From a virus, in the UHGV virus genome UHGV-1603728: DNA of 18,018 nt. One strand, written 5' to 3'. Under the pieces are notes generated by a model that saw only the letters and a program-made list of their open reading frames with translations, was not told where the DNA came from and searched no databases. The translations under genes were made by a program, and so were the position numbers. Numbering within the stretch: the stretch's first letter is position 1; each line of letters begins with the position of its first letter. Shown piece after piece: positions 6,489 to 16,857 of the stretch.

Positions 6489-6821
6489 TCAGATCTCCCG
6501 TATCGTGACGGGATAAAGCGCCTCTACCTGCTTTTTCTTCATGATGTAGACGTCTGTTCGCACACCTTTAGTGTCGACACAATCAATCGTCCCATCGTCA
6601 TAAAACACCATGAAATCAAGTTTATAAACGACACCACCTGGCAGATGAAAAGGCACCTGCATAAGAAACGTCACAACGCGGCCAGCTTTTCTCAGTAGCT
6701 TCAGTTCGCAGTAGTAATCAGCCTCTTTTTTGCTATCAAAAGCGATATCATCGACAACCGTTTTTTTATTGCCGTATTTGCTTTTCCTGGTCGCTGGTTT
6801 GCGAAAGCCGGTATATCTCAT
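6489..6821 (-). CDS. DUF1064-family phage protein
   Basis: N-terminus MRYTGFRKP ... KYGNKKTVVDDIAFDSKKEADYYCEL is characteristic of DUF1064, common in phage early regions. Confidence 0.55.
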   Translation of the reverse strand: MRYTGFRKPATRKSKYGNKKTVVDDIAFDSKKEADYYCELKLLRKAGRVVTFLMQVPFHLPGGVVYKLDFMVFYDDGTIDCVDTKGVRTDVYIMKKKQVEALYPVTIREI

Positions 6822-7222
6822 TTGGTATCCCCTGGTACTTCACCAAGACTAAGATCAAACCCAATTTCGTCTTTAACTGACTGCGGCAACAGCTCCCACG
6901 TCTGCGCACACAAAAATTCATCTGTGCCATAACGCTCAACAAAGCGAGCACAATTACTCAGGGGAGGGTGACGAACGGCAATATGCGGAGGCACACGCCC
7001 ACCACCAGGCACAACACCGCGATGATGTGGTGCGCACAGCCCAAAGCTATGGAAGTGGCAATTCTCATCAACGCTGCCGTAATCAGGATCGTGATGTAGC
7101 TCCGTCCACAGCTCTGGATTCTCAATTTCACGGCCATCAATAATGCAAGCTATGCAACCCACGTGAGTGAGCACCGCTTGTATATAAAGTTTCTCTTTCT
7201 TCGTTGGTGTACGTCCGTTCAT
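6818..7222 (-). CDS. Cys/His-rich nuclease-like protein (Ref / HNH-like recombination enhancement type)
   Basis: Motifs GCIACI, HHD, CHFH and CAPHH. Its ATG overlaps the upstream stop (TGATG). Confidence 0.4.
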   Translation of the reverse strand: MNGRTPTKKEKLYIQAVLTHVGCIACIIDGREIENPELWTELHHDPDYGSVDENCHFHSFGLCAPHHRGVVPGGGRVPPHIAVRHPPLSNCARFVERYGTDEFLCAQTWELLPQSVKDEIGFDLSLGEVPGDTK

Positions 7223-7455
7223 CAGCGCCCCTTACCATTGATAAAGAGGTTGAACTCGTTGATTAACTGGACATACATGCTTCTGGCCGCGTAGTTCTTT
7301 GCCAGCTCTTTACGGGATGAGATCCCGCAAAACTCACGCAGAATCACAGAGGCCTCAGAACTGTTTGAAACGTTCTTCCCTGTTTTACTGGTCAGAAAGC
7401 GCCAGAATTGGGGATTCTGGCAATGCATCGCAGCACCGCGAACATAACCACTCAT
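7222..7455 (-). CDS. Hypothetical small protein (77 aa)
   Basis: ORF with overlapping start/stop codons relative to both neighbours. Confidence 0.45.
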   Translation of the reverse strand: MSGYVRGAAMHCQNPQFWRFLTSKTGKNVSNSSEASVILREFCGISSRKELAKNYAARSMYVQLINEFNLFINGKGR

Positions 7456-7967
7456 TGATGGCCCCCGTCATTTCTGGTGCTTTTCACCGTGCGGCTTCTT
7501 AAAAACCTGCCATCACGAACAACAGACACTTCTCGTTTACCCAACCTCATTTCACGGCGGTAACATTCAGAAAATGCCTCGTCCGGCATCATATAAATGC
7601 GACGCTTCGCCTCCGTATCCAGAAGGGAACGGCTTGGGGTTACATATAAAAACGACTCATCAATAGGGACAAAACCACGAGCAAGAATTGCTGGCAGAAT
7701 GCCAGGAAGAACGCAGAAAACAGCTCCACGATGCAGCAACATCTGGTACTCCATGACCTCCGTTATCCCCGTGACTACTGTTACGGTGTCACGTCTGTTA
7801 CGGCTGGCAACCAGTCGCTGCACACGTCCAATTTTCTGATCTACAGATAGATGTTTGCTATCGTTATCAATATGATCGATAACAAATCCTTTAATCGTTT
7901 GATCAAGGTAGTGCACCACCTTCGATTGAATCTGGTGATTATCACCAAAGAAGGCCAGAATCATCAT
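7452..7967 (-). CDS. Hypothetical nin-region-like protein (171 aa)
   Basis: ORF whose ATG overlaps the Cro-like gene stop (ATGA); part of the overlapping-gene operon. Confidence 0.5.
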   Translation of the reverse strand: MMILAFFGDNHQIQSKVVHYLDQTIKGFVIDHIDNDSKHLSVDQKIGRVQRLVASRNRRDTVTVVTGITEVMEYQMLLHRGAVFCVLPGILPAILARGFVPIDESFLYVTPSRSLLDTEAKRRIYMMPDEAFSECYRREMRLGKREVSVVRDGRFLRSRTVKSTRNDGGHQ

Positions 7968-8458
7968 TCCTCAAGCCTCCCAAGTGCTGAACGCCGGGCG
8001 TTGCTAATCTCCTTATGAATCAGCTCGATATCGCTGGAATCTTTATTCTTAAACTCCAGCACGGCAATCGCATCACGAACCTCTGAAACGGTTACGTGTG
8101 AGTGTTTCCAGCGAGCAATGAATCGCGGACCGCGTAGATTGCAACGCTCCGCAGGCATCCCCAGCTCAGAGAAAACCGCTTTCAGCCTTGATAAGCAGTT
8201 AACAGGGAGATTCCCTTTGATCTTGTTCTGCCGAACCGATGTGCCATCGCTACGCTGGCGCTGACGTTCGGCAAAATCTGCCGCCCATTGCTGGACGTTA
8301 ATCCGGCCTTCCGAATACGCCACCAGCAGCGTCAGGTTATCCGCACGAGGGAATCTCTCGAAGCGATACCAGGCACCAATCAGTGATGACGTAAAGCCAA
8401 ACTTTCTGGCAACACCAATTTGGCCTCCATTTTCGTCAACCCACTCCTGAAAGGTCAT
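7964..8458 (-). CDS. Cro/YdaS-like HTH regulator with a roughly 100-aa C-terminal extension
   Basis: N-terminus WVDENGGQIGVARKFGFTSSLIGAWY matches the Cro/YdaS HTH pattern. It is divergent from the CI-like gene, with operators and a putative promoter upstream. Confidence 0.5.
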   Translation of the reverse strand: MTFQEWVDENGGQIGVARKFGFTSSLIGAWYRFERFPRADNLTLLVAYSEGRINVQQWAADFAERQRQRSDGTSVRQNKIKGNLPVNCLSRLKAVFSELGMPAERCNLRGPRFIARWKHSHVTVSEVRDAIAVLEFKNKDSSDIELIHKEISNARRSALGRLEE

Positions 8459-8477
8459 TTAACGAACTCCAGTTAAA

Positions 8478-8513
8478 ACCACGATATGTGGTATTAAAAC
8501 CACATATCGTGAG
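8478..8513. promoter_or_regulatory. Operators O1 (ACCACgatatGTGGT) and O2 (ACCACatatcGTGag), forming a 13-bp-arm inverted repeat
   Basis: 8479-8491 and 8500-8512 are reverse complements at 12 of 13 positions. They overlap the putative leftward promoter (-35 TTGAAA at 8521..8516, -10 TTTAAT at 8498..8493). Confidence 0.5.
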
Positions 8514-8580
8514 TTTTTCAATGGGCGAAACAAAAAATAACCTTCTATTTGTGGTCCACCTCTCGTCTTACCATGTGAAA

Positions 8581-8595
8581 ACCACTAAATGTGGT
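8581..8595. promoter_or_regulatory. Operator O3 (ACCACtaaatGTGGT) upstream of the CI-like gene
   Basis: Perfect half-site palindrome of the same family, about 40 bp upstream of the CI-like start. Confidence 0.5.
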
Positions 8596-8632
8596 AATGT
8601 ATAAATAACCCACCATTCACGATTGATGAGAC

Positions 8633-9289
8633 ATGAAAAGCAACGACGAGAACATCAAGAAAGAAATAGGTCTGCGCATTCAGACTCTACGGAAACAATC
8701 CGGCATGACTGCCGGAGATCTCCAGCAAGTCACTGGAATAGGCTTAAGCACCTTGCAGAACTATGAGGCCGGATTAAGACAACCATCTATACCTGCCATC
8801 AAGAAAATCGCGCACGCCCTGAAAGCATCAGCGCCTTATATCGCGTGCTTAACAGATAACCCGTTCCCACCCCAGAATACTAACGCTCCTGTTATTCCTG
8901 GGCTTGTAGCTATAAAAAATGACATAGCATCGCACGCCGGAGAAAAGCCAGTGCTGGCGATAGAACAGGAGATTCTACGAAGCAAGAACATCAACCCATC
9001 GTCTCTGTCAGTTCTCCAGAGCAACGATGAGTTAATGTCACCAACAATATCCCCAGGCTCCCAAGTCCTGATTAATACAGACGATACAGAGATTCATGAG
9101 GGGATCTATGCCCTTGAAGACAGAAATGGCCTGGTTGTTTTGAGGCACTGTAGAGTCATACCGGGTGACAATGCTGTTATGCTGTCAACCGAAAGGGATG
9201 CTGAAATGAACACTAAGCATCTGAATAACGAGGAATTTAAGCGTTATAAAGTTCTGGGCCGCGTAGTTAGTGTTGTCAACTGGTTATGA
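8633..9289 (+). CDS. CI-like repressor: N-terminal XRE HTH plus C-terminal S24 (LexA-like) peptidase-fold domain
   Basis: HTH segment LRKQSGMTAGDLQQVTGIGLSTLQNYEAG. The C-terminus (ELMSPT ... NGLVVLRHCRV ... GRVVSVVNWL) parallels the LexA/CI C-terminal domain. Confidence 0.7.
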   Translation: MKSNDENIKKEIGLRIQTLRKQSGMTAGDLQQVTGIGLSTLQNYEAGLRQPSIPAIKKIAHALKASAPYIACLTDNPFPPQNTNAPVIPGLVAIKNDIASHAGEKPVLAIEQEILRSKNINPSSLSVLQSNDELMSPTISPGSQVLINTDDTEIHEGIYALEDRNGLVVLRHCRVIPGDNAVMLSTERDAEMNTKHLNNEEFKRYKVLGRVVSVVNWL

Positions 9290-9331
9290 TACACAGCACG
9301 GCGAAAGCCGTGCATTTCTACGCTCAAAAAA

Positions 9332-9346
9332 ACCACGCTTTGTGGT
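9332..9346. promoter_or_regulatory. Operator O4 (ACCACgctttGTGGT) upstream of the 124-aa gene
   Basis: Same ACCAC-N5-GTGGT family; TTGACA follows immediately at 9348-9353. Confidence 0.45.
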
Positions 9347-9381
9347 TTTGACAACATGTGAAAGTATAAAAGAGGCTACGC

Positions 9382-9756
9382 ATGGAATTACATACAGCCA
9401 ATAAAAACGAAACTCTGATCACTGCTGGAATCGAAATCCAAGCGTTGAACATAGCGATTGAGTGTATGTTATGCCAAATCATTGATAATGAGAAAGATAT
9501 CGACTGGATAGAATCTATCCTTCATCTGGCATCAGAACAAAAAGTCTGCCTCAAAACGGCCTTACAATACGATGTGCCAGCGGTATCGAAGCTGTGCCAG
9601 CCATTGATGGCATATAACAGGGCTATTATTTCTGTATGCCTCATGATTCTCGATGAAAACACCCCTCTTAGCGACCGCTCAGAAGCTGCTCTAACCCTCT
9701 CACGTAAACAGCGACAGCTAGCAAATCAACTGATATCAACGATAGCTGACCTCTGA
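9382..9756 (+). CDS. Hypothetical protein (124 aa)
   Basis: ORF with SD AGAGG 6 nt upstream, followed by an 8-bp hairpin at 9759-9780. Confidence 0.45.
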   Translation: MELHTANKNETLITAGIEIQALNIAIECMLCQIIDNEKDIDWIESILHLASEQKVCLKTALQYDVPAVSKLCQPLMAYNRAIISVCLMILDENTPLSDRSEAALTLSRKQRQLANQLISTIADL

Positions 9757-9782
9757 CTGCAAGCGGGCTAACGCCCGCTTAT

Positions 9783-9882
9783 ATGATTATAGATTTATAT
9801 AATTATATAAAACGCTTTTCATCAGCCAAAAAGTTGGTTATGCTTACCTCGTTCTATAAATATAGATTTATAGAATTATATA
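9783..9882. promoter_or_regulatory. Iteron clusters S3 and S4 upstream of parA (centromere/operator-like)
   Basis: ttatagatttatataattatataa (9787-9810) and ctataaatatagatttatagaattatataa (9854-9882), made of TATAGATTT and TATATAA units in both orientations. Confidence 0.5.
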
Positions 9883-9906
9883 ACCAAACACATGGAGTCT
9901 CGACAA

Positions 9907-10560
9907 ATGACTATCTCTGTAGGTATTTTCAACGGAAAAGGCGGCGTAACCAAATCAACAATTGCCCGTGCTTTAGCAGTTGCTTATGCAAAGGCCGGCT
10001 GGAATGTATGCCTGATCGATATGGATGTGCTTAACGGAACGGTAACGCGTTGGGTACAACGCAGAATGGCCAACAATATCGAACCTGCAATCGCGGCGCA
10101 GCCGTGCGGCACACCATCACAAGTCCAGAAAATCATCGAATCAGAAGTATACGACCTGGTTATCGTCGATGGCGGTGCCTACGCATCTGAATCAGTACCG
10201 AAGCTCTCTGAATTTCTGGATATGGTTATTTTGCCAACCAGATTCTCTACCGATGACCTGGAAACCACCGTTAACACAGCTCATGGCATCGTTAAAAAGG
10301 GTGTGCCAATCAAGAAAATTTGCATGGTGTTCTCAGGCGCGGCTGAAAACGAAGCCGACTACATTGAAGCCCAAGAGTACCTGGCTAATACGCCATACTT
10401 TGTTGTCGATAAGTACATTCCCCACAAGCCAGCTCTGAGCAAAGCTCAGGATAAGGGCTTAAGCCTCATTGAGTGCTCATACGTTGCGCCACGCAAAAAG
10501 GCAGACGACGTTATTCAGGGGATTATCAACCAGCTTGAGGCTCTGACTACTGCCGCGTAA
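9907..10560 (+). CDS. ParA/ParF-family partition ATPase (small ParA with deviant Walker A)
   Basis: Deviant Walker A KGGVTKST near the N-terminus, about 218 aa, no N-terminal HTH. SD GGAG upstream of ATG 9907. Confidence 0.8.
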   Translation: MTISVGIFNGKGGVTKSTIARALAVAYAKAGWNVCLIDMDVLNGTVTRWVQRRMANNIEPAIAAQPCGTPSQVQKIIESEVYDLVIVDGGAYASESVPKLSEFLDMVILPTRFSTDDLETTVNTAHGIVKKGVPIKKICMVFSGAAENEADYIEAQEYLANTPYFVVDKYIPHKPALSKAQDKGLSLIECSYVAPRKKADDVIQGIINQLEALTTAA

Positions 10561-10591
10561 TATATAATTATAGTTTTATAGATTTATATAA
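10559..10591. promoter_or_regulatory. Iteron cluster S5 between parA and the ParG-like gene
   Basis: tatataattatagttttatagatttatataa, the same unit family as S2-S4. Confidence 0.45.
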
Positions 10592-10603
10592 GAGGGGATA
10601 CAC

Positions 10604-10852
10604 ATGGCCGCACCATCAAAACCACCAAAGAAGAACAGCAAAGGCGTACCGCCATCGATCGAACAACCGCAGGTTTTCGACCCGACTGAAACGCCAACCA
10701 GAACCAAATCAGGTGGGGCACAAATGGCGTTTAACGTCGACCCTGAATTTAAACGTGAGTACAAAACATTCGCCAGCTCAATGGATATGTCATTGAAAGA
10801 AGTGCTGACAAAATCTTTTGAGTTACTCAAGGCTCAATACAACCAGAAGTAA
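10604..10852 (+). CDS. ParG-like ribbon-helix-helix centromere-binding protein
   Basis: 82 aa, directly downstream of the ParA-like gene. The C-terminus AFNVDPEFKREYKTFASSMDMSLKEVLTKSFELLK follows the RHH pattern of ParG (VNFDEEKHTRFKAACARKGTSITDVVNQLV). SD AGAGGGG upstream. Confidence 0.6.
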   Translation: MAAPSKPPKKNSKGVPPSIEQPQVFDPTETPTRTKSGGAQMAFNVDPEFKREYKTFASSMDMSLKEVLTKSFELLKAQYNQK

Positions 10853-10914
10853 GAGAAGGTGACGGCCTCCAGCGCCAACTGTTGGCCGTCGCGACACAAC
10901 AAGGGGAATTTGTT

Positions 10915-11064
10915 ATGTCCGAACAACAATATACACGGTTACTGAAAACTCGTCTAACCGACCTCAAACGGCTGCAAGCTGGTCGCTTATTTGCCCTGCT
11001 ATCCACCAGGCCAGAATGGGTACGTGAAGCAGTTCTGAAAGGCTTAATGCGCTCCAGCGTTTAA
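10915..11064 (+). CDS. Hypothetical small protein (49 aa); doubtful
   Basis: Short ORF with SD AAGGGGA upstream of ATG 10915; ends just before the convergent terminator hairpin. Confidence 0.3.
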   Translation: MSEQQYTRLLKTRLTDLKRLQAGRLFALLSTRPEWVREAVLKGLMRSSV

Positions 11065-11074
11065 ATTCAGCCAT

Positions 11075-11098
11075 AAAAAAAGGCCCCCGAAGGGGCCT
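11075..11098 (-). terminator. Intrinsic terminator (7-bp GC stem, CGAA loop), effective mainly on the minus strand
   Basis: AGGCCCC-cgaa-GGGGCCU with a run of 7 T on the minus strand, directly downstream of the small hydrophobic ORF. Confidence 0.6.
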
Positions 11099-11103
11099 AA
11101 TCG

Positions 11104-11226
11104 CTACTTGCTGCTAATGTTTATCGTCACATTCAGAGCGTTATCAGTAATCTTCCAACCCTCCCCATGTGGCGTAAACAAAGCTCCAGTAACAACGATA
11201 AAAATACACATGTAGTATTTTTTCAT
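11104..11226 (-). CDS. Small hydrophobic peptide (40 aa), candidate type I toxin
   Basis: MKKYYMCIFIVVTGALFTPHGEGWKITDNALNVTINISSK has one N-terminal hydrophobic helix. It is followed by a terminator and preceded by a long 5' leader containing a 20-nt box complementary to a divergent RNA. Confidence 0.35.
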   Translation of the reverse strand: MKKYYMCIFIVVTGALFTPHGEGWKITDNALNVTINISSK

Positions 11227-11290
11227 TGTGTGGCCCTTACAGGCCGTTTCACGGCATCCCCACCGACGAAAATGTCGCGAGAGCAAGCAC

Positions 11291-11310
11291 GCTGTTTGTG
11301 CCTGCGTGGT
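11291..11310. repeat. 20-nt box copy 1 (GCTGTTTGTGCCTGCGTGGT), in the putative leader of the small-peptide mRNA
   Basis: Identical at 19 of 20 positions to 11541-11560. Confidence 0.6.
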
Positions 11311-11498
11311 ACGGCAAGTGGATAATCCTTTCCTGAAAGTCAGTGCCCGGGTGCGAATCGGCGGAAAGGCCCCAAGCCATATTACACGTCATACCCTTCA
11401 TAATGAAGGAATAAAAAACGCTTTTATTACATAAGATTACACGTAAATAAGTTAAAAACCTTCATTTTGCATGAGCTAATGAGCTAAATTTTTTTATA

Positions 11499-11516
11499 TG
11501 AATAGTGGACTATTCA
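11499..11516. promoter_or_regulatory. Perfect palindrome TGAATAGT-GG-ACTATTCA
   Basis: 8-bp arms with a 2-bp spacer, between the divergent putative promoters and 25 bp upstream of box copy 2. Confidence 0.4.
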
Positions 11517-11643
11517 CCTCAGTTGGGTAAGAATGTAGTTGCTGTTTGTGCTTGCGTGGTTGTATTAGTACAACGACGTTATGCTGAAAGGACCGCGAAT
11601 CCGATCAGCACGAAAGAACCGTCCTCAATAGGGCGGTTTTTTT
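11500..11643 (+). ncRNA. Candidate antisense sRNA (antitoxin-like) containing box copy 2 (11541-11560) and ending at an intrinsic terminator
   Basis: No credible ORF. Box copy 2 read on the plus strand is complementary to the minus-strand transcript at box copy 1 (19 Watson-Crick pairs and 1 G-U). The 5' end is not defined. Confidence 0.3.
11617..11643 (+). terminator. Rho-independent terminator (plus strand)
   Basis: 9-bp stem AACCGUCCU / AGGGCGGUU with loop CAAU, followed by a run of 7 T. Confidence 0.65.
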
Positions 11644-12197
11644 GTTTCTCCCCCTTCCTTCCCAAATGATTCAAATGTTAATGAGAGAGAATCATTTGAT
11701 ATGTTCGATTTAGCGCCGTTATCGACCCAATTTCTGTATGCTTCATCACAACAGTACCTTACAGCAGTTGGAATAACAGGAGAGCCGCCCAGAAATGAAA
11801 ATCCCATTGAGCTTATGCTAATTCTTTCGAATGGCCTATTTCTCAATGCTTCAAATCCCTTGCTGTTGAAGTAACTCAGCATCAGAGGTAAAAGGTTATC
11901 CTCGTCTTGACTGATTGTTCCCGGGAAAAAGTAGTAACCATGGCGATTAAATTCGGGAATCAGTTTTTCTACCAACAACATGAAATTCATTGGGGTAATA
12001 TTAAGGGCAGAGCAAGCACCAAAAAGAGCATCAACCGTTAATACAGACTGTCCGTTCTCTATCTTTGTCCATGCGTTTGGTGTTTTTCCAGCAGCTTGAG
12101 CCAGCACTCCTTGATGCACACCTCTTTCTAGCCTAAGTTCTTTTATGATCATTAGGTGGATTGTTGAAAAACATGAGTTTTTTGACGTTTCAGTCAT
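11625..12197 (-). CDS. XRE-family HTH regulator with a C-terminal domain of unknown function
   Basis: Start trimmed to MTETSK (ATG 12197, SD GGGGAT upstream). HTH segment IKELRLERGVHQGVLAQAAGKTPNAWTKIENGQ. Divergent from the antirepressor operon. Confidence 0.55.
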   Translation of the reverse strand: MTETSKNSCFSTIHLMIIKELRLERGVHQGVLAQAAGKTPNAWTKIENGQSVLTVDALFGACSALNITPMNFMLLVEKLIPEFNRHGYYFFPGTISQDEDNLLPLMLSYFNSKGFEALRNRPFERISISSMGFSFLGGSPVIPTAVRYCCDEAYRNWVDNGAKSNISNDSLSLTFESFGKEGGETKKPPY

Positions 12198-12335
12198 TTT
12201 TTTATCCCCATATTGAATTTTTTCCTTGTTCCCAACTTTAACAAAACACCACAACTCAGGATTGAGTCATTCCTTACAGGAACTATACATTCCCGTCTTT
12301 GGTATATCAAGAAAATTAAAAGCTCGGCATTCAAA

Positions 12336-12350
12336 CCCACACTATGTGGT
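12336..12350. promoter_or_regulatory. Operator O5 (cCCACactatGTGGT) between the HTH gene and the antirepressor operon
   Basis: Same ACCAC-N5-GTGGT family as the sites around the CI-like gene. TTGACA lies at 12375-12380. Confidence 0.4.
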
Positions 12351-12513
12351 TTAGTCTGTTAAAATCCCTCTGTATTGACATGAATGCGCCATTGGTGGAC
12401 ACTTTCCGAGCCGTAGCAAAATCTACGGTCGGGATTAGCCTCCTGAATAACACGATGGCGCATACCGCGTTAGCGGTTTTTTTTATGCGTAGAGCACTGT
12501 TACGCCCAAATTA

Positions 12514-12592
12514 TGGTGGGTCGTACAGGGGCGGAGAAATCCGCGCCGGTTCGTCATTGTGTCCGGTAAGGCTAACCCTGTACGGCTCACCA
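12514..12592 (+). ncRNA. Structured RNA element resembling phage P1 c4 antisense RNA
   Basis: 17-bp closing stem (12514-12530 with 12576-12592) enclosing a GAAA-tetraloop hairpin (12531-12544) and a hairpin with a 13-nt loop (12546-12566). Loop sequences are complementary to flanking target boxes and to the start codon of the downstream small ORF. Confidence 0.4.
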
Positions 12593-12646
12593 CCATTTGA
12601 TTAGCCTCGAATGGCGGTGATAGTTCCATATACTGGAGATATCACA

Positions 12647-12838
12647 ATGACAAACCTACCCCATGACTATTACGTCAACCTCGTAAAGATCCTTCTCAAG
12701 AAAGCCTCATACGCCGATAAATTCCGCCTGGCTGAAATCATCGAGCGCGAAGCTATGCGCATCGCCAGCAACGATAACGCTGTTTCTGACGCAAAAATCT
12801 CCCTCGTAACCAAAGTAGTTATGGGAGGTGCAAAATGA
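12647..12838 (+). CDS. Small protein translationally coupled to the antirepressor (icd-like position)
   Basis: ATG 12647 with SD GGAG 8 nt upstream; its stop overlaps the antirepressor ATG (ATGA). An alternative ATG at 12611 has no SD. Confidence 0.45.
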   Translation: MTNLPHDYYVNLVKILLKKASYADKFRLAEIIEREAMRIASNDNAVSDAKISLVTKVVMGGAK

Positions 12839-14016
12839 AAACGCTTCCGACCGTTAACACCCTACAGCCTATCCTGCATAACCAAATCCCCGTTATCACT
12901 ACTGAACTACTGGCAAAGCTATACGGCACAGACGTTGATAACATCAAAAAAAATTACTCACGTAACGCAAACCGCTTTATTGAAGGAAAGCATTTTTTCA
13001 AAGTGGCTGGCGATGAGTTAAAAACTTTGCGAGTGACTTTAAGTCACTCACAAAATTTGCGACTGGTTTTAAACGAGTCACAAAATGAGGTGCAAATTTC
13101 CCCCAAAACTCGCTCTCTCATCCTCTGGACAGAACGCGGGGCTGCACGTCACGCCAAAATGCTTGAAACTAACCAAGCGTGGGATGTGTTCGAACGGCTG
13201 GAAGACTGCTACTTCAACCAGAACGCGCAAACGGCCGCGACCGTTACCGTCTCGCCAAACAATGCTCGTGAGGTTGTCGATACGCTCAACGCCAAACCGA
13301 TGTTTTACATTAAAGTGTGCAACAACGAGCCACTCACAACCTCAGCCGATGTTGCCCAGGCATTCAGCACCACAAACAATTCCATCGTTATGGCCATCGA
13401 TGCGCTACGCATTCCTCGCACGGCTGCGGCGCGTCACTTCTTTAAAGAGCAACGACCGCTGGAAGGAAGCGACCGCGAAATAACAATCTATCGCATGACA
13501 AAAGACGGATTTACCTTACTCATGGAGAGCATCGACGGTCCAAGCGTGAAAGATATCAAGCTGGCCTACATTGAAGCCTTTAACGCTATCAGCAGCGTGT
13601 TAAAAACACAGTACGAGCGTGATCTGGCTAAACGACTGTACCAGGAAAAAACGATTATCCGCGCGGCAACAGAGCATAATCGGCTATTAACGGAACCGAA
13701 CTACAGGAAGGAACTAATCAAGGAGTTTGACAAGGCAACAGGGAAAACCAAAGCGGCGCTAAATCTGCCAGCAATGACTCAGGAAAATGTGATATCAGCC
13801 TTACTTCTTGATCTGCTCAGAAACGCCAGAGCACTGATCAGCTTTGACGAAAACCTGAATCCTCAGCTCAAGCTACTACCACCGACAGGCAAAGTAGTCG
13901 ACCAGGCAGATCACAACAGCATACTCAGCGTACTGGATGCAAACCTACCAGCCAGGACACTACAGGAACTGATAAAGATATCGGCGGATAAACTGGCCGC
14001 AGGTGCAAAACCATAA
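12835..14016 (+). CDS. Phage antirepressor (ORF6N/KilA-type N-terminal region with Rha-like central domain)
   Basis: N-terminus PVITTELLAKLYGTDVDNIKKNYSRNANRFIEGKHFF is ORF6N-like; the centre PLTTSADVAQAFSTTNNSIVMAIDAL is Rha/Ant-like. 393 aa, SD GGAGG 6 nt upstream. Confidence 0.75.
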   Translation: MKTLPTVNTLQPILHNQIPVITTELLAKLYGTDVDNIKKNYSRNANRFIEGKHFFKVAGDELKTLRVTLSHSQNLRLVLNESQNEVQISPKTRSLILWTERGAARHAKMLETNQAWDVFERLEDCYFNQNAQTAATVTVSPNNAREVVDTLNAKPMFYIKVCNNEPLTTSADVAQAFSTTNNSIVMAIDALRIPRTAAARHFFKEQRPLEGSDREITIYRMTKDGFTLLMESIDGPSVKDIKLAYIEAFNAISSVLKTQYERDLAKRLYQEKTIIRAATEHNRLLTEPNYRKELIKEFDKATGKTKAALNLPAMTQENVISALLLDLLRNARALISFDENLNPQLKLLPPTGKVVDQADHNSILSVLDANLPARTLQELIKISADKLAAGAKP

Positions 14017-16202: not shown

Positions 16203-16502
16203 TCAGATGTTAAACGCTATTCGTTTTCCTGTGGGAAGCTCAACATCCAGGCTTAATTTGCCTCCCATAGCTTCAACGTAACGCTTTAATGTCGCCAGCT
16301 TTAAATCATTTCCGCGCTGCTCCAGCTTTGTTACTGCTGGCTGGCTTATACCCATCGCCTCAGCAACCTGTTTTTGTGATAACTGGAGTTCTTCACGCAT
16401 CATCTGCAAGCCGACCTCAAGAATCATCTCATCTGCCATTTCTTTAATTCGCGCCTGACTTTCAGGTGAACGGCTGGCAATCACCTCATCTAATGTTCTC
16501 AT
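16203..16502 (-). CDS. HigA-like HTH antitoxin (addiction-module antidote type)
   Basis: 99 aa with an XRE HTH (LSQKQVAEAMGISQPAVTKLEQ), directly downstream of and overlapping (TAATG) the RelE/HigB-like toxin gene. Confidence 0.75.
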   Translation of the reverse strand: MRTLDEVIASRSPESQARIKEMADEMILEVGLQMMREELQLSQKQVAEAMGISQPAVTKLEQRGNDLKLATLKRYVEAMGGKLSLDVELPTGKRIAFNI

Positions 16503-16849
16503 TACTTGCTCTCCAGTGTGTTCAGATGTGCTGCAAACTCATCCTCAGCTATACGCACCAGTTTTTCATAAAACCGTTTATCGTTACTTTTGTCTCCTGC
16601 ACAAAGAACGATGGCCCGGCGAATCGGATCGAACACATAAAAGGCTCTTATCGGACGGCCAGAAAACTGAACGCGAAGCTCTTTCATATTTTTGTACCGA
16701 GAACCTTTTACGGTATCGGCATATGGCCTGGGTAACTCAGGTCCGTAAACCTGTAGCTTTTTCAAATCAGCCAAAACCTTTTCCTGAAGAGCGTCTTCTT
16801 GCTCATTTAGCCAGTCATCAAATCGCTGGCTAAAAAGTACCGTCCACAT
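16502..16849 (-). CDS. RelE/ParE-superfamily HigB-like toxin (addiction-module killer type)
   Basis: About 115 aa, in the toxin-upstream HigBA arrangement. Start trimmed to ATG 16849 (MWTVLFSQRFDDW) with SD AGGA upstream. Confidence 0.7.
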   Translation of the reverse strand: MWTVLFSQRFDDWLNEQEDALQEKVLADLKKLQVYGPELPRPYADTVKGSRYKNMKELRVQFSGRPIRAFYVFDPIRRAIVLCAGDKSNDKRFYEKLVRIAEDEFAAHLNTLESK

Positions 16850-16857
16850 GCTCAATC

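Follow-up and report, generated by a model that had tools for sequence, protein, structure and literature searches.

The 18,018-nucleotide stretch of the virus genome UHGV-1603728 (the window) contains the gene of a CI-like repressor at positions 8633-9289 (+), which in the open reading frame (ORF) list encodes 218 amino acids plus the stop codon. On its upstream side the gene is bordered by a divergent early operon; downstream come a partition cassette and, at a distance of 3.5 kb, an antirepressor gene. The protein is composed of an N-terminal helix-turn-helix (HTH) DNA-binding domain of the HTH_3 family (residues 1-75, 8633-8857, +), delimited by Pfam, predicted helices and family conservation, a linker without an Ala-Gly cleavage motif (residues 76-107, 8858-8953, +) and a C-terminal domain (residues 108-218, 8954-9286, +), which hhalign, AlphaFold and Foldseek indicate to be a pseudo-peptidase of the S24 type. 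An earlier sequence-only reading of this DNA, based on an alignment made by eye, had proposed that the C-terminal region is related to the autoproteolysis domain of LexA and lambda CI, that an Arg replaces the catalytic Lys and that the repressor may therefore not be cleavable in response to RecA.

The DNA-binding domain is matched by Pfam HTH_3 at residues 16-69 (E 4.5e-11), and the helices spanning residues 4-70 are predicted with a predicted local distance difference test score (pLDDT) above 90. A word-indexed search returned a narrow family of 12 full-length sequences, in which the 11 relatives are 60-67% identical to the repressor and the HTH domain is nearly invariant. All members are found on enterobacterial contigs, the longest of which measure 46-49 kb. 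The PHROG_4 family ('transcriptional repressor') spans residues 4-217 with an E value of 9.6e-27, and phrog_6201 ('CI-like repressor') covers residues 110-214 (E 2.9e-9), while the NCBIfam matches to the repressor are confined to the HTH.

The C-terminal domain bears clear resemblance to the S24 superfamily. An exhaustive profile search with this domain detected 558 proteins at E<1e-3; among the 140 proteins that were aligned from it, 123 are matched by Pfam S24, with a best E value of 1.9e-24. Comparison of the family with its canonical relatives in hhalign gave a probability of 99.7% and an E value of 3.8e-27 (2e-25 in a second run). The AlphaFold model was built on the 140-sequence alignment and has a pLDDT of 91.2 overall and above 92 in the C-terminal domain, for which the 12-sequence family alignment had given values below 50. 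Foldseek aligns the model to the C-terminal domain of Mycobacterium tuberculosis LexA (6a2s) with a target-normalised TM score of 0.73 and a root-mean-square deviation of 2.2 Å over 95 columns. The corresponding scores are 0.80 for UmuD (8gmt), 0.75 for UmuD' (1ay9), 0.67 for the lambda CI C-terminal domain (1f39) and 0.74 for that of 186 CI (2fkd), another 186 entry, 7jvt, being the top match. The top matches among viral structures (BFVD) are annotated 'Repressor protein CI'. Taken together, the profile, hhalign and fold matches place the homology of the domain to LexA, CI and UmuD far above chance, as the sequence-only reading had suspected. The relationship to S24 is real but remote.

To locate the catalytic residues, LexA and UmuD of E. 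coli and CI of lambda, in which S119/K156, S60/K97 and S149/K192 fit positionally, were mapped onto the profile. All six alignments, made with HMMER, MAFFT and hhalign, place the nucleophilic Ser (S119 in LexA) at Leu134 of the repressor (codon 9032-9034, +). In the HMMER profile alignment, this column is occupied by Ser in 120 of 150 relatives and lies within the motif G-D-S-M-x-P-T, where the repressor reads D-E-L-M-S-P-T. The nearby Ser136 is not an equivalent of the nucleophile, as the position is occupied by Ala in 10 of the 12 family members.

The general base is absent as well. LexA K156 is aligned to R171 by MAFFT with 140 sequences, by MAFFT with LexA and the nearest phage relatives, and by hhalign with the closest canonical relative as master. 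It falls on L170 in two HMMER alignments, in which R171 corresponds to LexA R157 and R174 to the Arg at +4, and in hhalign against 79 relatives that have a 13-residue Gly-to-Lys spacing. The two codons occupy 9140-9145 (+). The alignments are divided because a one-residue indel is placed either in the turn of the β-hairpin (R164) or after it. Gly and Lys are 13 residues apart in 79 of the 86 canonical relatives and 14 apart in the remaining 7, a spacing that fits both assignments. Neither candidate position holds a Lys, and residues 157-194 contain none, K195 being the first Lys after G157.

The cleavage site has also been lost. Canonical relatives carry the motif [FY]xxIPxYDVxASAGxG at a distance of 14-15 residues ahead of a conserved LAF; throughout the repressor family, this SAGxG column is either gapped or missing. 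By position, the scissile pair would fall at about A93-I94/K95 in the linker. I94, L134 and the R171-H172-C173-R174 motif are invariant in the 12 family members. Across the 140 aligned proteins, Ser, Lys and Ala-Gly are all kept in 71 and all absent in 33, the latter comprising the 12 members of the repressor family and 21 others. The nearest phage relatives outside the family, from Aliivibrio phage H905 and Vibrio phage PhiPS02 (26-30% identity), have Arg and not Lys. This co-loss is the pattern that would be expected if autoproteolysis were lost as a unit. With Ser, Lys and the Ala-Gly site all gone, RecA-stimulated autocleavage would therefore be excluded; judged from the alignments, the repressor is very likely non-cleavable, and its C-terminal domain can be regarded as a pseudo-enzyme that keeps the S24 β-fold in the predicted model.

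Residual self-cleavage would have to proceed through S136, S185/T186 or H172/C173, or at a non-canonical site such as A102-G103. An Ala-Gly pair and Ser136 are indeed present in the repressor, and H172 and C173 are invariant. However, Ser136 is replaced in most of the family, as described above, and Ala-Gly at 102-103 is found in 4 of the 12 members. The pair is also out of register, located 5 residues ahead of the LAI strand and not approximately 14. Together with the joint loss of all three features in 21 other relatives, this makes retained proteolysis highly improbable. A Cys-His active site was considered and rejected: H172 and C173 are adjacent on the β-strand formed by E168-176, and the geometry of the model suggests that their side chains point to opposite faces.

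The alignment made by eye deserves a brief comparison. The three strings on which it was based are present in the protein: ELMSPT (E133-T138), NGLVVLRHCRV (N165-V175) and GRVVSVVNWL (G209-L218). Its pairing of the last with GLAVGVIRNGDWL agrees with the MAFFT alignment. The pairing of NGLVV with LexA NGQVV is wrong, since the latter corresponds to E156-A160 (EGIYA): LexA NGQVVVARI aligns with E156-R164 (EGIYALEDR), and NGLVVLRHCRV with LexA DDEVTVKRLKK. Two strands of the hairpin were thus fused, yet the correct neighbourhood was reached. A profile alignment with HMMER had been named as a check; the absence of Lys from the general-base position holds in the HMMER, MAFFT and hhalign alignments, while its replacement by Arg is one of two options, R171 or L170. 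The likening of ELMSPT to GMSM might point to S136, which is not the counterpart of the nucleophile, and the replacement of the Ser by Leu134 went unnoticed; the missing Ala-Gly motif was overlooked too. A comparison of a predicted structure with LexA was also named as a check, and the Foldseek match to 6a2s bears on it at the level of the fold. The central proposal, a repressor that RecA does not cleave, is well supported at the sequence level by the absence of Ser, Lys and Ala-Gly, their invariant replacement in the family and their co-loss in relatives.

The region 7000-12000 of the window matches about 60 circular plasmids at 97-99% identity; they come from E. coli, E. albertii and Salmonella and are non-mobilizable. 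Most of them measure 48-52 kb, and the E. coli ATCC 25922 plasmid of 48,488 bp (locus L002 in our set) is among them. The same region is 98-99% identical to the Yersinia phages vB_YpM_39/41/44 (three isolates), whose repressor is 100% identical to that of UHGV-1603728. The complete ATCC 25922 element encodes RepA, ParA, terminase, portal, capsid, contractile-tail, baseplate and lysis proteins; the window is therefore a piece of a functional myovirus-type phage-plasmid of about 48 kb. Such elements are common. The repressor cluster holds 211 member sequences, one of which occurs on at least 1000 contigs; the hosts comprise E. coli, including the reference strain ATCC 25922, E. albertii and Salmonella, and the elements have also been isolated as infectious phages on Yersinia pestis. 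Two candidates for a studied or named representative of the group were rejected: vB_YpM_HQ103 is an unrelated 32-kb P2-like phage, and pSLy3 belongs to the SSU5 supergroup.

Upstream of the repressor, a divergent gene of 164 amino acids occupies the position of cro (7964-8458, -; phrog_7452, function unknown). It is the first gene of the early-left operon, in which it is followed by genes of unknown function, a Ref-type nuclease, DUF1064 and DUF3560 genes, and then holins and endolysin. An Ea22-like gene is also found among the divergent phage early genes. The cro-position gene is syntenic in the related loci L003-L005, and a gene of different length takes the same divergent position in L008 and L009. 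The Ref-like gene (6818-7222, -; Pfam RecA_dep_nuc, E 1.6e-11) codes for a RecA-dependent nuclease of the P1 type; it is kept in L003-L005 and L009 and constitutes a further P1-like module in a genome that is otherwise unrelated.

The control region shared by the two divergent genes contains three putative operators, counted as 15-bp palindromes of the form ACCAC-N5-GTGGT. O1 (ACCACGATATGTGGT, 8478-8492) is located next to the cro-position gene and has no mismatches. The degenerate O2 (8499-8513) has two mismatches and lies 21 bp from O1, centre to centre. O3 (ACCACTAAATGTGGT, 8581-8595), without mismatches, is found 38 bp upstream of the repressor ATG. A further perfect copy is situated between the repressor gene and orf124/parA (9332-9346), at a position that is conserved in L001 and L003-L005. 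An operator-like site with one mismatch (CCCACACTATGTGGT, 12336-12350) precedes the antirepressor operon described below, and its equivalent exists in the ATCC 25922 plasmid. In that plasmid, ACCAC-N5-GTGGT is also found about 40 bp upstream of repA (13018-13032). The ATCC 25922 element (48.5 kb) contains 8 sites with at most one mismatch, where 0.67 would be expected, and none of 100 shuffled sequences reached 8.

The half-sites are invariant across four elements with repressors that are 60-100% identical, while the spacers and flanks vary. Such conservation agrees with an HTH domain that hardly varies. In distant relatives, the palindromes keep the 5-N5-5 geometry but have other half-sites, ACTAC-AATTT-GTAGT in the Serratia element L009 (9950-9965, 12655-12669) and CACAATTTGTG-like palindromes in L008 (9890-9965), in keeping with an operator specificity that changes together with the HTH domain. 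We infer that the ACCAC-N5-GTGGT palindromes are the operators of the repressor. By analogy, their distribution suggests that a single repressor links immunity to plasmid replication and partition, much like P1 C1 on repL.

Downstream, the repressor gene is followed by the co-directional genes orf124, a ParA ATPase (Pfam CbiA/ParA) and a parG-like gene of 82 amino acids (9382-10852, +). The order of repressor, ORF, parA and small gene is syntenic in L003-L005, L008 and L009, with repressor identity down to 30%. The remainder of the interval to the antirepressor gene holds a ryfA-like RNA and a second HTH gene of the XRE family (11625-12254, -; 190 amino acids from the ATG at 12197), which is divergent from the promoter of the antirepressor operon. 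The relatives of its product are uncharacterised XRE-family proteins, the named ones mostly from Vibrio, and neither Pfam nor PHROG matched its C-terminal part. This protein might regulate the antirepressor operon, as in the transcription factor-small ORF (TF-smORF) modules of plasmid-phages, or be an accessory gene product.

The antirepressor gene ant (12835-14016, +) encodes a 393-residue protein with ORF6N and Rha domains (Pfam ORF6N, E 1e-20; Phage_pRha, E 1.5e-12) that matches PHROG anti-repressor families with E values of 5e-60 to 1e-20. The sequence-only reading had placed an antirepressor module adjacent to the repressor; the gene exists, but is separated from it by the 3.5 kb just described. 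Its operon starts with a leader (12397-12483, +) identified by Rfam and motifs, in which targets of the c4-a1b1 type (12397-12449, +; 35.7 bits, below the gathering score of 46.7) overlap an isrK-like RNA with a terminator (12410-12483, +; 65.7 bits, gathering score 50). This is followed by a C4 antisense RNA (12509-12597, +; RF01695, 70.8 bits against a gathering score of 45, E 2.6e-12) and by a2/b2-type targets (12600-12649, +), composed of ATTAGCCTC at 12600-12608 and CACAATG at 12643-12649. A 63-codon ORF in the position of icd (12647-12838, +) overlaps the start of ant as ATGA. It is annotated as a coding sequence in the ATCC 25922 plasmid, and its product had no match in Pfam.

Duplex prediction between C4 and its targets unfolded the whole RNA, and motif complementarity was used instead. 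The target motif ATTAGCCTC occurs twice, at 12434 and 12600, and is complementary to the unpaired GGCUAA of C4 (12570). CAC(G/A)ATG is likewise found twice, as CACGATG at 12451 and CACAATG at 12643, and is complementary to the C4 loop CAUUGUG (12555); the copy at 12643 includes the start codon of the 63-codon ORF (12647). The segment 12397-12838 together with ant forms the complete layout of the P1 immI operon: a1/b1, c4, a2/b2, icd and ant. C4/isrK modules are also found in L003 and L004, whose repressors are 65% identical, and in L008 and L009 (30-33%). In L009 the module lies in a different place of the element, ahead of an antirepressor gene of the P22_AR_N type.

The analogy to Salmonella prophages that the sequence-only reading had drawn is not borne out for the Gifsy prophages: the Gifsy repressors have no C-terminal domain, and no LexA box (CTGT-N8-ACAG) is present in the window. 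Boxes with one mismatch number 7 against 5.1 expected, which is chance level, and none is located near 12255-12835. The whole ATCC 25922 element has a single chance-level match inside a structural gene, and none was found near the immunity and antirepressor regions of the related loci. A candidate in L009 (12567-12582) was rejected: this palindrome is centred on GC, precedes a Tlde1-domain gene and does not resemble a LexA box.

If the repressor cannot cleave itself, another mechanism than RecA-triggered self-cleavage must switch it off. We consider it probable that the gene encodes the CI-type master repressor of the approximately 48-kb phage-plasmid, with a pseudo-S24 domain, and that the C4-controlled Ant is its most likely derepressor. 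The N-terminal HTH would bind the ACCAC-N5-GTGGT sites, three in the divergent promoter region and one downstream of the repressor gene, with further sites upstream of the antirepressor operon and, in the complete element, upstream of repA. The S24 domains of lambda CI and LexA provide dimerisation and cooperativity, and the pseudo-S24 domain presumably serves dimerisation and cooperative binding as well. Derepression would be non-proteolytic or proceed via another protein, the likeliest agent being the ORF6N/Rha antirepressor. The C4 RNA would pair with the start region of the small ORF and thereby hold off the translationally coupled ant. Operator binding, oligomerisation, the contact between Ant and repressor and the trigger are all steps that we infer. 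Inactivation of the repressor by Ant, in particular, is suggested by the co-occurrence of C4 and ant with pseudo-S24 repressors down to 30% identity. A role for Ant is thus plausible, while the SOS/Gifsy analogy is unsupported.

Several observations weigh against this interpretation. The Pfam Peptidase_S24 match to residues 113-212 is weak (18.4 bits, E 0.0018, cut-off 23.3). Searches of PDB sequences with phmmer and with the family profile gave HTH proteins or noise and no S24 chain, as the relationship is too remote for these methods. The 3:3 split of the alignments makes the assignment of the residue at the Lys position ambiguous. In principle, a different HTH protein might recognise the palindromes. 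No C4 module is found in the 4.3 kb available downstream in L005, and no LexA box or other recognisable input for induction was found in the window or its relatives.

The last of these points also bears on an alternative in which the repressor is indeed non-cleavable, yet its physiological inducer is something other than the C4-controlled Ant, the module serving mainly in superinfection or anti-immunity. Derepression would then be due to a small Coi-like inhibitor from the early-left operon, to the HTH regulator encoded at 11625-12254, to proteolysis by the host, or to effects of dilution and copy number. In line with this, the search for LexA boxes in the window and the ATCC 25922 element revealed no signal that would feed into ant, the cro-position gene is followed by several small genes without annotation, and a second XRE-family gene is divergent to the immI-type promoter. 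P1 has a second antirepressor, Coi, beside c1 (PMC8546580), and TF-smORF antirepressor modules that act independently of SOS are known in plasmid-phages (PMC10432266). Against it, C4/isrK modules accompany the 30-33%-identical repressors of the same cassette, twice in the same place after par and once elsewhere beside the P22_AR_N antirepressor gene, and an operator-like site precedes the immI-type operon. We regard this alternative as unlikely, although it is the more serious of the two that concern the function of the protein. The other holds that the protein is primarily a plasmid-maintenance regulator of the par operon and repA, and not the master repressor of the lysis-lysogeny decision. 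The gene is co-directional with orf124, parA and the parG-like gene in a cassette conserved down to 30% identity, and palindromes are located both before parA and, in the ATCC 25922 plasmid, before repA. However, the repressor faces a long divergent early operon across three palindromes in a shared promoter region, which is the classic arrangement of an immunity region, and phage CI repressors are what it matches best in both structure and profile searches. The two roles are also not exclusive, given that P1 C1 controls a replication gene as well (PMC8546580). We assign a pure maintenance function only a slight chance.

The repressor of UHGV-1603728 can best be summed up as a protein of the lambda-CI type that carries a pseudo-S24 domain and is embedded in a plasmid-prophage circuit of the P1/N15 kind. 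With LexA, lambda CI and UmuD it shares the homologous C-terminal β-domain, the modelled fold, the build of HTH, linker and S24-like domain, and the framework motifs M-x-P-T-I, G-I-Y and G-R-V-V. It differs from them in Leu134 for Ser119, in Arg171 or Leu170 for Lys156 and in the missing Ala-Gly site.

N15 and P1 are closer precedents than the Gifsy prophages. The N15 cI protein has been shown experimentally to be non-proteolytic, and Silpe et al. predicted 210 of 271 cI proteins of linear plasmid-phages to be without catalytic sites (PMC10432266). The N15 antirepressor operon is under the control of a small processed RNA according to Ravin 1999, as cited in PMC10432266, and the antirepressor AntC belongs to the LexA regulon according to Mardanov and Ravin 2007, as cited in PMC3121763 and PMC10432266. 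The N15 element thus resembles ours in being a phage-plasmid with a non-autoproteolytic CI-type repressor and an RNA-controlled antirepressor. In contrast, N15 is linear and has telomeres and an RNA of the P4 CI type; its antirepressor is part of the LexA regulon, whereas no LexA box was found here. A search of the phage collection revealed no sequence relationship between the repressors at E<1e-3.

The likeness to P1 lies in the circuit. Both elements are plasmid prophages with dispersed repressor sites, here putative, that include sites before the antirepressor operon and the replication gene. Both have the order a1/b1, C4 RNA, a2/b2, small ORF and ant, with C4 loops complementary to the start of the ORF, and both carry a Ref-type RecA-dependent nuclease. 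P1 C1 is a protein of 283 amino acids that is unrelated to repressors of the lambda-CI/XRE type, to which the protein described here belongs with its pseudo-S24 domain, and the P1 genome measures 94 kb against about 48 kb. The Ant protein here is of the ORF6N/Rha type and is likened to Ant1/2 of P1 by module layout. In P1, the c4 RNA represses Ant1/Ant2, C1 binds dispersed operators including those that control RepL, and Coi together with Lxc sets the activity of C1 (PMC8546580).

Antirepressors are known to inactivate non-autoproteolytic repressors in 186 (Tum), in N15 (AntC) and in the Gifsy prophages (PMC3121763). The 186 CI protein is non-cleavable and inactivated by Tum, as cited in PMC3121763 and PMC10432266. 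Its C-terminal domain is among the structural matches listed above; on the other hand, Tum is LexA-controlled, and 186 CI has no significant sequence similarity to the UHGV-1603728 repressor. Pfam Phage_CI_C gave no match to the repressor at E<=10 and matches 5 of the 140 aligned sequences at E<=0.001. The repressors of Gifsy-1/2/3 (GfoR, GtgR and GfhR) are approximately 136 amino acids long and lack the C-terminal domain, and their antirepressors are directly controlled by LexA and located outside the immunity region (PMC3121763). What would be shared with Gifsy is induction by antirepressor binding instead of repressor cleavage. The differences are a C-terminal domain that is missing altogether there and inactive here, and the LexA control of the antirepressors.

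The loss of proteolysis has thus been documented already, in N15, 186 and many cI proteins of plasmid-phages; our results extend it to a previously uncharacterised repressor and are no surprise. If the master repressor cannot cleave itself, induction would not be expected to follow the lambda rule of a direct response to RecA activation, which affects the prophage induction predicted for DNA-damaging antibiotics. Automated 'S24' or 'LexA-family' labels on CI-like repressors do not equal autoproteolysis, as several catalytically dead relatives exceed the Pfam S24 cut-off. The R-H-C-R surface, which stays conserved in the dead active site, may have taken on another function.

Going further, a distinct lineage of phage-plasmids, enterobacterial and Vibrio-related, may have fixed a lysogeny cassette of pseudo-S24 CI, small ORF and parA/parG, in which the dead domain (Leu134, R171-H172-C173-R174) serves as docking surface for the C4-gated antirepressor. 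We put this forward as a tentative idea, with the odds against it. If true, induction would be independent of SOS, immunity, partition and replication would be combined in one regulon through the operator before repA, and a P1-style circuit would have been rebuilt around a lambda-type repressor. The cassettes of L008 (10001-12067, repressor P0019) and of the Serratia element L009 (10001-12215, repressor P0035) have repressors of 30-33% identity in the same arrangement: divergent early operon, repressor, small ORF, ParA and a gene of about 80 amino acids. The R-H-C-R motif is also found in P0019.

A number of minor features were observed in the window. Directly 3' of the repressor stop codon lies a hairpin (CACGGCGAAAGCCGTG, 9296-9313) with a T-poor tail, which may act as a weak terminator or in RNA processing ahead of the downstream operator and the par genes. 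The ryfA match (11076-11374, -) is full-length and scores 135 bits against a gathering score of 80. The locus contains a short hydrophobic ORF (MKKYYMCIFIVVTGALF..., within 11104-11286, -) and, at the 11081-11098 end, a GC hairpin with a T-run. By comparison with ryfA/TimP, we presume that it could be a locus for a small toxic protein or a plasmid stabilisation locus similar to type I toxin-antitoxin systems. A gene for a Gp49-like toxin of the HigB/RelE type (16502-16855, -; E 4.6e-23) is followed by an antitoxin-like gene with HTH_3/HTH_37 matches (16203-16502, -), and the pair is likely an addiction module of the plasmid prophage. Finally, a sub-threshold Rfam match to GcvB at 1269-1426 (-; 34.9 bits against a gathering score of 42, E 1.5e-4) overlaps a weak match to Spot 42 and is probably a phage-borne hairpin resembling a small RNA, a terminator region, or a chance match.

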